A DNA stretch of 64,000 nt from Escherichia phage vB_EcoM-Ro157c2YLVW: the sequence record NC_050153.1. One strand, given 5' to 3'. A program made the translations under genes and the position numbers. The notes under the pieces are model-generated. The model saw only the letters and a list, made by a program, of their open reading frames with translations. It was not told where the DNA came from and did no database searches. Positions within the stretch are counted from its first letter, which is position 1. Every line of letters begins with the position of its first letter. Below, piece after piece: positions 55,161 to 57,816 of this stretch.

Positions 55161-55316
55161 GTGTCATCCAAGGTTAATTATGAGTCGCTGGCATCGGTCA
55201 TGCCGCGTAATGAACAGGAAACAGATGCTGTAGTGGACCCTGTAATCGCTGAAATGAATGCTCGCCTGGAGGCTGAATTTGCAGCTGAGAATGAACATAC
55301 CACCCAGGGCGACTAG
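55161..55316 (+). CDS. small acidic protein
   Basis: GTG start after GGGAG RBS; 51 aa. Confidence 0.35.
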   Translation: MSSKVNYESLASVMPRNEQETDAVVDPVIAEMNARLEAEFAAENEHTTQGD

Positions 55317-55920
55317 GACTGTTTTTTGTGTCGGTAGCGGTCCGTCACTCACTCGTGAGGACTGTGCTGCTATAGAAAAAACTGGCTGTTCAATCATCGC
55401 GGTTAACAATTCCTGGCAGATGTTCGATGACATTTATGCCTTATACGCCGGTGATTTGTCATGGTGGAAGCAATACGGATCCACCATACCGGGAGGGAGA
55501 TTCCGCAAAGTGACAGCCAACCTGGCGGCGGCGAAATCATTTTCGTTGGAGTACAGGCGATATTGTGGACCGGCGGAAGGGGTAAATAGCGGCGCGCAGG
55601 CTATCAGTCTGGCTGCTGAATCAGGGGCTGAAGTAGTGGTATTAGTCGGCTATGACTGTTCTCTGCAAAACGGCCTTCATTGGCATGGCGCGCACCCTCA
55701 AGCACTACGGAATCCAACGCAGGTGTCTATTTCAAAATGGCAACAGCAGTTCCTGGATACCCGCAAAAAACACGCAGATTTACATATTTTGAATGCAAGT
55801 AGGAGCAGTGCAATTCAATGTTTCCCAAGAATAAATTTAGAGGCAGTGATCGCGTTATTATCGTCGGCAGTGGCCCAAGCGCCGCAAACTTTGTTGCGCC
55901 GCGCGGAGTGCCGATTATAG
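55291..55920 (+). CDS. MptE/DUF115-like protein, paralog 1
   Basis: N-terminal VGSGPS...IIAVN Rossmann-like signature; overlaps paralog 2 by ~100 nt. Confidence 0.5.
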   Translation: MNIPPRATRTVFCVGSGPSLTREDCAAIEKTGCSIIAVNNSWQMFDDIYALYAGDLSWWKQYGSTIPGGRFRKVTANLAAAKSFSLEYRRYCGPAEGVNSGAQAISLAAESGAEVVVLVGYDCSLQNGLHWHGAHPQALRNPTQVSISKWQQQFLDTRKKHADLHILNASRSSAIQCFPRINLEAVIALLSSAVAQAPQTLLRRAECRL

Positions 55921-56444
55921 CGGTCAATGGGGCCATCGACTGGCTTAACCGCGCTTCTTATTTTTTCACCCTTGATCCATCCCCAGACAATATGCGGCGC
56001 GTTGGTCGTGGCCGCCGTCGCCGTGGTGTTTGTTATTGCATGGCACTGCCCGATGTTAAAGAACGTGAAGTCAGAGATGGCGTTCTGTGCTTCCGTCGTG
56101 TGGCTGAACGCGGCATGGAGCCAAAAAATACGAATTCTCCCGAGTGGTGGGCGTGGCGCTGGTCCGCACATTTCGGCCTTTGCGAAGATGAGAATGAAAT
56201 TGCCAGCGGCAATAGTGCATATGGTGCTCTGAACCTGGCTTTCCATATCGGATTCAAACATGTAGCTCTGGTGGGCGTTGACGCTACGCAAGAACTACGC
56301 GTTCACTCCGGCGGCACGCCAAAAAATCTAAGTCACCTGCCTTTGTTATTCCAGTCTGCGCGTGAACAGATTGACGTTGTTTCATGCGGGAAAATGGGAG
56401 GTATTCCGCAGATGACTCTTAAAGAATGGCTGAAGAATACATGA
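55818..56444 (+). CDS. MptE/DUF115-like protein, paralog 2
   Basis: AGGAG RBS; IIVGSGPS...IIAVN signature. Confidence 0.55.
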
Positions 56445-57118
56445 TGGCACCCACAATTTATCACCGTATCGACGGTACCAAATACAGGAATGTCTGGGTT
56501 GTTGGTGATCTGCATGGTTGCTACACCAGACTGATGTCCGAACTCCATCGTGTGGATTTTGACCCGGCGCAGGATTTACTGATATCGGTCGGCGACCTTA
56601 TCGATCGCGGTACTGAAAATGTCGAATGTCTGGAACTATTGCAGATGCCCTGGTTCAGGGCAGTGATGGGGAACCATGAGCGGCTGATGATTGATGCGTT
56701 AAGTCCAGATGGCAACGTGAATAACTGGCTAATGAATGGCGGACAATGGTTCTTCATGCTGGACACTGATCAGGAAATATTAGCCTGGGCGCTGGTGGAG
56801 CTGGTAAAGCGTCTGCCCTATATCATTGAGTTGAACACGGGGCAAGAAACTATCGTTATAGCCCATGCCGACTATCCGGATAATGAATACCAATTCGGTA
56901 AGGAGGTGCCGCTTTTCAACATTGTCTGGGCGCGCGAGCGTATCAGTGATTCGATGGATGATATTGGTGGCGAAATTTCGGGCGCAGATCGTTTTATCTT
57001 TGGTCACACTCCGGTGAAAAGCCCGAAGACATTCTGGAATCAGCAGTATATCGACACTGGTGCCGTATTTTGCGGAAACCTGACATTGATGAAAGTGAAA
57101 GGTGATGGTGCAGCATGA
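56426..57118 (+). CDS. PPP-family Ser/Thr protein phosphatase (lambda-phosphatase-like)
   Basis: Canonical motifs GDLHG, GDLIDRG, GNHE. Confidence 0.85.
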
Positions 57119-57816
57119 AGATTGCTTTAGTTTTTCGCTCTGGTGGTGACTATAACGCTTCCGATGTGCAGTGGCTGGTTAATCAACTGCCAAAAGGCTA
57201 TGAAATTATTTGCCTGACAGACCTGAAGCGTTTACATGTACCTGGCGTCAAAGTTGTCCCATTGATCAACCAGTGGCAAAAGTGCCGTGGCTGGTGGGCG
57301 AAAATCGAGTTGTTCCGACCGGATATAACCGATGATCTGTTCTATCTGGATTTGGACACGGTTATTGCCGGTGATATACGCCCAATCCTAGAGCATCCAC
57401 CAACCAGCTTCACCATGCTTAGGGATTTTTACCATCCACAATATCGTGGCAGCGGTGCCCTGTGGATACCAAATAGTGTTAAAGCGCATATCTGGAGTTC
57501 ATTCTGGCAAGATCCGGAAGGTTGGATTTCTCGTTGTGTCACTACTGAGTGCTGGGGTGACCAGGGGTTCTTACGAAAGGTTATGGGCGATGATACACCA
57601 GCATTTCAGGATCTGTATCCAGGATGGTTTGTAAGTTACAAGGCCGATGTTGTGGAACCTGGTTCAAAATATGCGAGCGCGCGTTACTCCAGGGGGAATG
57701 GGGCATTACCAAAAGACTGCCGAATAATCTTTTTCCACGGCAAACCGCGACCTCGCGAAGTGTCAGAGGATTGGCTTCCCCTTATCAGCTCATTTTTTGA
57801 GCGAGAATCAGAATAA
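57115..57816 (+). CDS. DxD-motif nucleotide-sugar transferase-like protein
   Basis: ATGA coupling to the phosphatase gene; motif YLDLDTVI. Confidence 0.45.

Follow-up and report, generated by a model that had tools for sequence, protein, structure and literature searches.

Glycosyltransferases of the Maf family modify flagellin, and its members, such as those of Magnetospirillum (PDB 5mu5) and Clostridium botulinum, are proteins of about 600 aa built from three domains, an N-terminal Rossmann-like domain, a central Maf_flag10 domain and a C-terminal helical domain (PMC11339370). Maf enzymes expressed in E. coli O-glycosylate serine and threonine with Kdo taken from CMP-Kdo (PMC11339370; bioRxiv 10.1101/2020.06.03.131540). 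The Rossmann-like core of Maf recurs in the Campylobacter GT42 sialyltransferase CstII and in archaeal MptE. CstII acts on lipo-oligosaccharide, with His188 as its catalytic general base, whereas MptE, a 6-hydroxymethyl-7,8-dihydropterin pyrophosphokinase, and the thiamine pyrophosphokinases are kinases and not glycosyltransferases. A different family, the retaining glycosyltransferases of GT8, includes glycogenin, the Skp1 alpha-galactosyltransferase (6mw5), pneumococcal GlyE (5gvv) and the LPS core enzymes WaaJ, WaaO and WaaR. Among phages, virion glycosylation was reportedly shown experimentally for mycobacteriophages by Freeman et al. in 2023 ([quoted passage not shown]).

The window analysed here, a stretch of 64,000 nt, has, over its whole length, 99.3% identity to phage P1 and 98.1% to P7, and carries the already catalogued P1 operon pmgN-pmgO-pmgP-ppp-pmgQ. 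Coordinates of the P1 record were converted as window = locus + 51099. All ORFs and every sequence feature named in a preliminary description of this DNA were present as described. An upstream unit, outside the pmgO-pmgP-pmgQ trio, consists of pmgL (54268..54513, + strand), coding for a small Cys-rich treble-clef-like protein with a CxxC...CxxxC pattern and a weak VATC match (Pfam, E 0.009), and pmgM (54516..55094, +), coding for a VRR-NUC-like nuclease (RefSeq name VRR-NUC domain protein; Pfam VRR_NUC E 3e-4, 21.2 bits, just under the 23.8 cut-off), in agreement with the zinc-finger protein and VRR-NUC nuclease reported earlier. The late promoter LPpmgL (54161..54179, +; P1 annotation, locus 3062-3080, where the window is identical to P1) points, as annotated, towards pmgL and possibly reads through to pmgQ.

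Scanning with the 17-bp C1 consensus ATTGCTCTAATAAATTT gave 10 operator matches in the window, where chance alone would give 0.32. Among them are the two operators between which the preliminary description had placed the whole gene block (54194 and 57818), both real C1 matches: O26 (formerly Op82; 54194..54210, -; two mismatches to the consensus; annotated in P1 and P7) and OpmgRa (57818..57834, +; P1 annotation and operator scan). The block between them is, however, not a single unit, because Oppp (formerly Op83; 55101..55117, -; AATGCACTAATTAATTT, three mismatches; annotated in P1 and P7) parts pmgL-pmgM from pmgN-pmgQ. Lying directly 5' of pmgN and next to an annotated promoter, Oppp is predicted to be the real 5' control element and boundary of the pmgN-pmgQ operon. 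That promoter, the predicted sigma-70 promoter PpmgN (55062..55088, +; locus 3963-3989), was not recovered by a consensus promoter scan and is thus placed by the P1 annotation only. Oppp and OpmgRb (57867..57883, -; P1 annotation and operator scan) had both been overlooked; OpmgRa controls the next operon, pmgR-pmgS. The small ORF pmgN (hdmA in P7; 55128..55316, +; phrog_2350) codes for 51-62 aa depending on the start, and is restricted to P1-like phages, with no homolog in any non-P1 locus examined. At the other end, an 11-bp hairpin followed by UUUUUUAUU (57843..57870, +; RNA fold -13.4 kcal/mol, z -5.0, with 0 of 200 shuffles folding as well) is a probable intrinsic terminator that probably closes the pmgN-pmgQ operon. 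It is missing from the features listed for the P1 record. In that record the operon has the baseplate/tail operon on one side and, on the other, pmgR, a gene essential to P1 for head completion (PMC9024508).

The first of the two Maf/GT42-like (PF01973-fold) genes, pmgO (55258..55920, +), runs from 55258, and the start at 55291 given earlier is its second in-frame ATG; since homologs mostly begin near 55291, either start is defensible. The second, pmgP (55818..56444, +), is the best conserved of the module's genes. The two genes overlap by 103 nt (55818-55920), close to the ~100 nt first estimated, and in other loci, too, the end of pmgO runs into the start of pmgP. PmgO and PmgP, of 220 and 208 aa, respectively, are single-domain tandem paralogs. 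Both contain the VGSGPS...IIAVN signature, and their likeness, which reached only E 0.003 by BLASTP, is not due to chance because profile-profile comparison gave a probability of 98.2% (E 5.7e-14, 163 columns). The MptE/DUF115-like assignment was also upheld by matches to PF01973 (MptE-like, formerly MAF_flag10/DUF115) at E 5.7e-5 for PmgO (23.4 bits) and E 3.4e-4 for PmgP (20.9 bits), both below the gathering cut-off of 34.6 bits, and by matches of all 51 PmgP-family members to this family (best E 8.6e-7). Some relatives carry a precomputed PF01973 call.

Predicted models of PmgO (pLDDT 85.6) and PmgP (95.0) have the PF01973-family fold, with its Rossmann-like core. Maf was the top match for both (165 and 158 residues aligned, versus 129 and 136), at a sequence identity of only 16-18%. 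Unlike Maf, they are domains of ~200 aa lacking the Maf N- and C-terminal domains, and come as a paralog pair with a GT8 partner outside any flagellar context; flagellar genes were absent from the sampled loci. The PmgO family profile aligned the GxGPSL and SG...LG..I.L.G.D motifs of CstII, with an overall E of only 0.2. Invariant in the PmgO family are G28, P29, S30, S111, G112, G131 and D133, so that the N-terminal GxGPS CMP-binding motif of GT42 and its SG...G-x-D motif are both present. Conserved histidines (PmgO H141, H143 and H146; PmgP H173) are at most candidates for a counterpart of CstII His188. The PmgP profile had no match among PDB sequences, NCBIfam had none for PmgO, PmgP or PmgQ, and a BFVD search returned only uncharacterised DUF115-like phage proteins. 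A joint model of a natural O+P fusion (P0051) was dropped since MAFFT aligned PmgO-family sequences to its PmgP half, to which they are paralogous; PmgO and PmgP were therefore modelled separately rather than as an O+P pair.

The last gene of the operon, pmgQ (57115..57816, +), codes for a divergent GT8-like (GT-A, DxD) glycosyltransferase of phrog_1962, annotated as glycosyltransferase. The DxD transferase recognised earlier is borne out by LDLDT in PmgQ and by the family profile, which matched the GT8 structures 6mw5 (E 1.6e-6), GlyE (E 0.004) and glycogenin (E about 0.02); PmgQ also aligned with WaaJ (hhalign, E 4e-4), including the DxD and H..G..KPW motifs. D79-L80-D81, GDQ, SYK and FHGxPRP are invariant in the PmgQ family, and the GT8 motifs D79-L80-D81 and H208-G209-x-P211-R212-P213, invariant or nearly so, align with those of 6mw5, glycogenin and WaaJ. 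PmgQ thus shares the DxD, GDQ region and C-terminal H-G-x-P-R/K-P of GT8 enzymes but is shorter (233 aa) and itself has no Pfam match, PF01501 included, at E<=0.1. Glyco_transf_8 (PF01501) was the sole Pfam family matched among its relatives, weakly and in 6 of 27 (best E 0.026). The PmgQ family is a separate, mostly phage-borne subfamily.

Between pmgP and pmgQ lies ppp (56426..57118, +; phrog_246, NinI-like), coding for a lambda NinI-type, Mn-dependent PPP-family Ser/Thr phosphatase. Like lambda NinI and E. coli PrpA/PrpB, Ppp carries all the PPP motifs (GDLHG, GDLIDRG, GNHE), as had been recognised, and it matches Metallophos (PF00149) at 59.3 bits against a cut-off of 21.5. It is related to PrpA/PrpB (NCBIfam, E 8e-81) and scores below the equivalog cut-offs (NF008516, 271.2 against 326 bits; NF007425, 239.1 against 332 bits), which makes it a relative and not an equivalog. 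The P1 record gives it 64% identity to the lambda phosphatase. The reported ATGA coupling holds for ppp and pmgQ (57115-57118) but not for pmgP and ppp, which overlap by 19 nt without an ATGA.

We found pmgP and pmgQ adjacent in every locus with enough flanking sequence (about 21 phage or bacterial lineages), with pmgO accompanying them in most. The diversity of the trio was drawn from a genome collection and contig look-ups; in an IMG/VR scan with the PmgP alignment, all 80 matches returned were P1 copies. The hosts span Gammaproteobacteria, Alphaproteobacteria, Betaproteobacteria, Bacteroidota and Gemmatimonadota, and all named hosts are LPS-bearing diderms. Gene fusions join O+P (P0051), P+Q (P0220, P0288), Q+P (P0308), Q+P+methyltransferase (P0270) and TylF-methyltransferase+Q (XacN1 ORF373). 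Accessory neighbours include GT2-like, PF03407 nucleotide-sugar-transferase-like and GT1-like proteins, all weak matches, together with Sulfotransfer_2, FkbM and TylF methyltransferases and class I SAM methyltransferases. No nonulosonic-acid synthesis genes and no pterin genes were present in any locus examined, and PADLOC gave no matches. The pmgP-pmgQ co-occurrence, the fusions, the sugar-related neighbours, the separateness of Ppp and Oppp as a boundary are new here.

The surroundings of the module vary. In three prophages (L095, L104, L106) the major capsid gene (PF05065) is followed directly by the module and this by head-completion/connector genes, and in a fourth locus (L098) the module lies just 5' of a head-tail connector gene. 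Other temperate phages have it in late operons, where it follows lysis genes and precedes terminase or else separates antiterminator Q from the lysis genes. The early expression proposed in the preliminary description is therefore only half right, with this placement and the annotated late promoter LPpmgL upstream in P1 both set against it. In five Pseudescherichia genomes, inverse-autotransporter and Big_1/invasin adhesin genes are interspersed among those of the trio, in one chromosome (L114) a pmgP+pmgQ pair has no phage genes nearby, and ribonucleotide reductase is the neighbour of the module in L101, L111 and L116, which are large lytic phages or phage-like contigs. The capsid-adjacent prophages resemble mycobacteriophages in having glycosyltransferase genes in a structural operon by the capsid gene, and the trio genes are likewise dispensable for plaque formation. 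In contrast to the mycobacteriophages, whose hosts are actinobacteria, the enzyme families and hosts differ, glycosylation here is proposed from the genes, the P1 operon is not beside the capsid gene, and other loci lie beside lysis or ribonucleotide reductase genes.

A glycosyltransferase assignment of the trio is well supported. The trio probably decorates virus-particle proteins, and to the fuller statement, that pmgO-pmgP-pmgQ is a cytoplasmic three-enzyme module building a glycan on virion or exported proteins, we give a probability of roughly 0.4. PmgO and PmgP would be paralogous single-domain transferases of the Maf/GT42 sialyltransferase fold, probably in a 1:1 pair, which by analogy may transfer a CMP-activated ulosonic acid, possibly from CMP-Kdo because this is the only such donor always available in enterobacteria; unlike the setting of CstI/CstII, E. 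coli K-12 and most hosts here lack sialic acid synthesis. PmgQ would be a GT8-like, DxD/metal-dependent, retaining hexosyltransferase, presumably adding a hexose from a UDP-sugar. The short glycan that they would jointly assemble would go onto an acceptor accessible in the cytoplasm, most likely proteins destined for the exterior of the cell. In phages these would be structural proteins of the virion, modified ahead of assembly or in its course, and in the Pseudescherichia chromosomal islands, Big_1 adhesins. Clues to such acceptors are the capsid-adjacent, late-operon and adhesin-adjacent placements and, in P1, the position beside pmgR; CMP-Kdo as donor is made plausible by the Kdo transfer of Maf enzymes in E. 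coli, by the absence of nonulosonic-acid synthesis genes from the loci and by the LPS-bearing hosts. The folds and enzyme classes, the paralogy, the linkage and fusions, the sugar-related neighbours and the anatomy of the operon are observed, and from these we infer the heterodimer, the donors and the acceptor. In P1 lysogens the operon would be repressed by C1 at Oppp; in lytic growth it would be transcribed from PpmgN, possibly with read-through from the late LPpmgL, and transcription would end at the hairpin. Any virion acceptor must be recognised generically since the phages carrying the trio share no structural protein family, and phage-free pmgP+pmgQ pairs and loci next to ribonucleotide reductase make a host-directed or non-virion target possible. 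A bolder version of the proposal, that the trio is a widespread and hitherto overlooked protein O-glycosylation system of phages with Gram-negative hosts, using the universal host CMP-Kdo pool and a UDP-hexose to place Kdo-containing glycans on virion proteins, and domesticated in Pseudescherichia for Big_1 adhesins before their export, we regard as unlikely to hold in full. The protein modification pathway considered in the preliminary description stays plausible when limited to pmgO, pmgP and pmgQ, and as regards enzyme class the sequence allows more than its view, that no functions could be assigned, had suggested.

The target might instead be a lipid-linked envelope glycan (LPS inner or outer core, O-antigen, capsule or ECA) altered at the inner membrane face. 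PmgO/PmgP would then transfer Kdo in the manner of WaaZ, and PmgQ would add a core hexose as the GT8 enzymes WaaJ and WaaO do, so that receptors are changed or masked and the effect is conversion, exclusion or protection of progeny from debris. We hold this to be rather unlikely. The alignment of PmgQ with WaaJ, the manufacture of LPS by all named hosts, the LPS core as the receptor of P1, the typical moron positions of the module (near lysis genes or 3' of Q) and the persistence of pmgP+pmgQ in phage-free chromosomes are all consistent with it. WaaZ also aligned weakly to both paralog profiles (hhalign, E about 0.002), but with a probability of 14-15%, which is marginal, and the faint precomputed match of the fused P0051 to PF27901 (WaaZ_KDO_III) stands against 0 of 51 PmgP relatives in a direct Pfam scan; WaaZ/Kdo-transferase membership was for these reasons dropped as an assignment and kept within this rival only. 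The P1 operon would, being C1-repressed, not be expressed for lysogenic conversion, and enzymes made late in the lytic cycle cannot change LPS already in the outer membrane. The capsid/connector placement in three prophages and the adhesin placement in Pseudescherichia indicate proteins, and LPS, O-antigen and flippase genes were not seen in the sampled loci. Very unlikely, in our judgement, is that PmgO/PmgP are MptE/thiamine-pyrophosphokinase-like enzymes, activating a small-molecule alcohol or sugar with ATP for PmgQ to use or modify, despite the MptE-like name of the matched Pfam family and the three large phages or phage-like contigs that place the module beside ribonucleotide reductase and other nucleotide-metabolism genes. 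This would be a nucleotide/cofactor-type pathway, near the nucleotide modification suggested earlier. Maf was the top match with the longest aligned region for both proteins, and both retain the CstII-type GxGPSL and SG...G.D motifs. Their obligate partner belongs to the glycosyltransferases, as do several accessory genes, the others coding for sugar methyl- and sulfotransferases, and folate, pterin and thiamine genes are absent nearby; with partners that are all sugar-modifying enzymes, we infer glycosyltransferase rather than pyrophosphokinase chemistry.

Tight packing and translational coupling of the P1 genes, by the 19-nt and ATGA overlaps, and retention of the O-P-ppp-Q order in divergent P1-like elements, e.g., a Pantoea plasmid-phage (L087; Ppp 58% identical), would suit one coordinated early pathway of PmgO, PmgP, Ppp and PmgQ in which the phosphatase shares the modification chemistry, as first proposed. 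The wider distribution makes this highly improbable: ppp was absent from all non-P1 loci examined that carry the trio, phage D6 has ppp alone in a lambdoid nin-like region, and the fusions combine O, P, Q and methyltransferases but never the phosphatase. Ppp resembles the lambda phosphatase, and lambda is not known to have a pmgO-pmgP-pmgQ-like trio. As it is absent outside P1-like phages, Ppp is a separate cargo outside the pathway, an unrelated and independent gene that the P1 lineage took up between pmgP and pmgQ. DNA-modification and anti-defence readings rank low. Glycosylation of phage DNA or of a nucleotide precursor as an anti-restriction hypermodification recalls that DNA is a frequent target of phage glycosyltransferases, and could draw on the ribonucleotide reductase neighbourhood (L101, XacN1, L116) and on a PmgP homolog (P0259) whose N-terminal region shows, by eye only, a ParB-like 'DGRRR' motif. 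It is nonetheless extremely unlikely. Hydroxymethylated or glycosylated bases are not known from P1 DNA, no hydroxymethylase or other base-modifying genes were seen with the trio, and the capsid- and adhesin-adjacent contexts do not fit. In P1 single knock-outs, which according to the table of the CRISPRi paper apparently cover the region, antirestriction was unchanged (PMC9024508).

Neither single deletion nor CRISPRi knock-down of pmgO, pmgP, ppp or pmgQ led to a plaque or antirestriction defect (PMC9024508; PMC10695390). Dispensability without a phenotype, which the preliminary description would have counted against its reading, is thus already seen in laboratory conditions, but an accessory enzymatic function is not thereby refuted. 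A literature search found essentiality screens only and no functional studies of pmgO, pmgP and pmgQ, and nothing on DUF115 proteins in phages. No glycans on P1 virions have been reported; the cryo-EM paper does not contain 'glycos', 'glycan' or 'post-translational' (PMC12810830), nor the virion proteome paper 'glycos' (PMC9024508).

P1 is among the most used phages in genetics, and since 2004 this operon has been labelled only 'putative morphogenetic function'. With Ppp outside the pathway, the role of lambda-type phage phosphatases becomes a separate question. Even with LPS or a small molecule as the target, a new mobile enzymatic cassette would be defined by the conserved linkage P+Q(+O). 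If the trio does glycosylate virions, virion glycosylation, so far shown for mycobacteriophages, would extend to Gram-negative phages, which would bear on how antibodies recognise therapeutic phages and P1-based delivery vectors and on how stable these are. It would also provide a compact, E. coli-native protein O-glycosylation tool set of two Maf-like enzymes and a GT8, and a testable function for a family of several hundred or more clusters of phage proteins, so far uncharacterised. If the Kdo reading is true, the standard transducing phage P1 would bring its own machinery, active in E. coli K-12, for glycosylating proteins with Kdo.

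The 4.1 kb surrounding the gene cluster shares 99.3% identity with phage P1 and 98.1% with P7, and its open reading frames correspond to the annotated P1 genes pmgL, pmgM, pmgN, pmgO, pmgP, ppp, pmgQ, pmgR, pmgS and pap (the central genes are named hdmA, hdmB, hdmC, ppp and hdmD in P7). The cluster thus belongs to an operon already known and catalogued in a model phage, with products annotated so far as "putative morphogenetic function" and no more. All of the sequence features that the preliminary description reported at 55291-57816 were present. pmgO (55258-55920, with a second in-frame ATG at 55291) and pmgP (55818-56444) each encode the motif VGSGPS...IIAVN and overlap by 103 nt. 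The phosphatase gene ppp (56426-57118) encodes GDLHG, GDLIDRG and GNHE, and the start of pmgQ (57115-57816), whose product carries an LDLD motif, overlaps ppp through ATGA.

10 matches to the C1 repressor operator were found in the window against 0.32 expected by chance, including those starting at 54194 and 57818, which had been proposed to bracket the whole block, and those at 55101-55117 and 57867-57883. The operators at both ends were confirmed, but not the single unit between them, which is split by the match at 55101-55117 that had been missed. This match is annotated in P1 as Oppp (formerly Op83) and immediately precedes pmgN, which makes pmgN-pmgO-pmgP-ppp-pmgQ the transcription unit and leaves pmgL-pmgM as its own unit further upstream, under operator O26. 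The description of expression as early was incomplete, since a late promoter, LPpmgL, is also annotated in P1 at 54161-54179, where the window sequence is identical, and expression need not be only early. The operon probably ends at an 11-bp hairpin with a U-run behind it (57843-57870; -13.4 kcal/mol, z -5.0), which is absent among the listed features of the P1 record. The hairpin sits between both pmgR operators and could terminate transcription in both directions, because A-runs and T-runs flank it on either side. In P1 the operon is positioned between the baseplate/tail operon and pmgR, a gene essential for head completion (PMC9024508).

The small ORF pmgN (55128-55316) has no homolog outside P1-like phages. 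It scored as essential in P1 when targeted by CRISPRi (EOP 1.4e-2), yet deletion showed it to be non-essential (PMC10695390), a mismatch that could come from polarity within the operon or from a regulatory site. The 420-aa product of pmgS (58118-59380) has a long coiled-coil segment with weak TPR-nucleoprotein and LPP matches; it is annotated as "sheath contraction" (shtB) in P7, yet is non-essential in P1 screens. Pap (59453-59959) matched the HAD phosphatase domain of polynucleotide kinase-phosphatase (PF25109; E 7e-12) and not a generic acid phosphatase, and together with Ppp makes two P1 phosphatases within 3.5 kb. A near-consensus C1 operator (59959-59975) begins at the pap stop codon.

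PmgO and PmgP aligned with each other with a probability of 98.2% (hhalign; E 5.7e-14), and by this profile comparison are true paralogs. Both matched PF01973 (MptE-like, formerly MAF_flag10/DUF115) below threshold, and the same model was matched by all 51 of the 51 PmgP relatives scanned. Clustered at 50% identity (E<=1e-3), the PmgP family falls into 641 groups. The PmgO family profile aligned with CstII at the GxGPSL and SG...LG..I.L.G.D motifs, and AlphaFold models of both proteins were confident (pLDDT 85.6 for PmgO and 95.0 for PmgP). For PmgQ, the sole Pfam family touched by its relatives was Glyco_transf_8; against GT8 structures the family profile matched Skp1 alpha-galactosyltransferase (E 1.6e-6), as well as GlyE and glycogenin, and it aligned with E. 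coli WaaJ over the DxD and H-G-x-P-R-P motifs. Ppp, which resembles NinI and is related to PrpA/PrpB, is a standard phosphatase of the PPP family. The enzyme classes first guessed from the sequence were therefore essentially right.

Homologs of pmgP and pmgQ were adjacent in every locus with enough flanking sequence (~21 lineages), most with a pmgO homolog. Carriers included lambdoid, HK97-like, podovirus-like and jumbo phages, with prophages in Enterobacteriaceae, Pseudomonas, Alloalcanivorax, Gilvimarinus, Zhongshania, Commensalibacter, Methylophilaceae, Brevundimonas, Xanthomonas, Stenotrophomonas, Sinomicrobium (Bacteroidota) and Longimicrobiales. In other loci, too, the 3' end of pmgO runs into the 5' end of pmgP, and outright fusions join O+P (P0051), P+Q (P0220, P0288), Q+P (P0308), Q+P+methyltransferase (P0270), methyltransferase+P (P0310) and TylF-methyltransferase+Q (XacN1). 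The variable neighbours inside the cassette are all sugar-related; among them are GT2-like, PF03407-like and GT1-like transferases (weak, sub-threshold Pfam matches), a Sulfotransfer_2 enzyme, and FkbM, TylF and class I methyltransferases. Among these loci ppp occurred in P1-like elements only, and in phage D6 it stands alone amid nin-like genes; ppp is independent cargo inserted into the cassette within the P1 lineage. This distribution points to a functional unit of PmgP and PmgQ, usually with PmgO and separate from ppp, which gene content would make a glycan-building cassette. The cassette decays easily: in two E. coli prophage contigs (L108:10606-11240, L109:1648-2282) pmgQ, found as two overlapping tblastn pieces with a called gene of 145 aa, appears frameshifted or pseudogenised with pmgO and pmgP intact, and in phage phi456 the region is interrupted by an IS (InsB).

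In three unrelated HK97-like prophages (L095, L104, L106) the cassette directly separates the major capsid gene from the head-completion or connector genes, and in a fourth locus (L098) it is just 5' of a connector gene. Carriers with the trio behind the capsid gene include a Pseudomonas element (L104) and Citrobacter phage phiNP. At other sites it comes after the lysis genes and ahead of terminase (L003, L004, L105, L108), or has antiterminator Q on one side and the lysis genes on the other (L107); in temperate phages the late transcript would always hold it. In five Pseudescherichia genomes there are no phage genes close by, and the trio is dispersed among genes encoding an inverse autotransporter and several proteins with Big_1/invasin repeats. 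At L103:2236-18532 the homologs are interleaved with a 1169-aa inverse autotransporter (IAT_beta + Big_1 + Invasin_D3) and four more Big_1-repeat proteins, a layout shared by L089-L093, and such an island may be an adhesin-glycosylation locus. Pairs of pmgP and pmgQ also persist in chromosomes that lack phage genes (L114). In three large lytic phages or phage-like contigs (L101:8415-11095, L111:1066-4650, L116:2460-6146) the cassette adjoins ribonucleotide reductase genes, which could mean that accessory enzymes cluster there by chance, or hint at a nucleotide-linked role.

The simplest unifying reading would be cytoplasmic glycosylation of proteins later displayed outside the cell, with virion proteins as the likely acceptors in phages and adhesins in the Pseudescherichia island. 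By eye, no signal peptide or membrane segment was obvious in the trio enzymes. Analogues would be the action of Maf on flagellin and the glycosyltransferases of mycobacteriophages, which are reportedly placed beside capsid genes. CMP-Kdo would be an attractive donor, because genes for nonulosonic-acid synthesis are lacking from every trio locus and all named hosts make LPS. Maf enzymes expressed in E. coli have been shown to attach Kdo to Ser/Thr by O-linkage (PMC11339370; bioRxiv 10.1101/2020.06.03.131540).

The main rival is that the trio modifies LPS or another envelope glycan, as GT8 is the family of WaaJ/WaaO and a faint WaaZ similarity was seen. Pyrophosphokinase chemistry for PmgO/PmgP is less likely. 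Pyrophosphokinases are nearly as close in fold as Maf, and PmgO and PmgP, unlike real Maf proteins, are without flanking domains. These two points, together with the phage-free pairs and the reductase-adjacent loci, count against protein glycosylation. The architecture of P0259, a 331-aa PmgP homolog, is also odd and at variance with that reading: its N-terminal extension, joined to the PmgP domain, carries, by eye, a ParB/sulfiredoxin-like "IIDGRRR" motif (residues ~95-125). DNA glycosylation by the trio is likewise less likely, as is the four-enzyme pathway of the preliminary description; a modification module is plausible for the trio, with Ppp outside it. Also against protein glycosylation, deleting pmgO, pmgP, ppp or pmgQ one at a time, or knocking them down by CRISPRi, gave no plaque or antirestriction phenotype (PMC9024508; PMC10695390), and neither the P1 virion proteome paper (PMC9024508) nor the 2026 P1 cryo-EM paper (PMC12810830) mentions glycans.

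A conserved, fusion-linked glycosylation cassette of PmgP and PmgQ (with or without PmgO), adjacent to capsid or adhesin genes, appears undescribed in the searchable literature. The genes themselves were already known; what is new here is the comparative genomics of the cassette.
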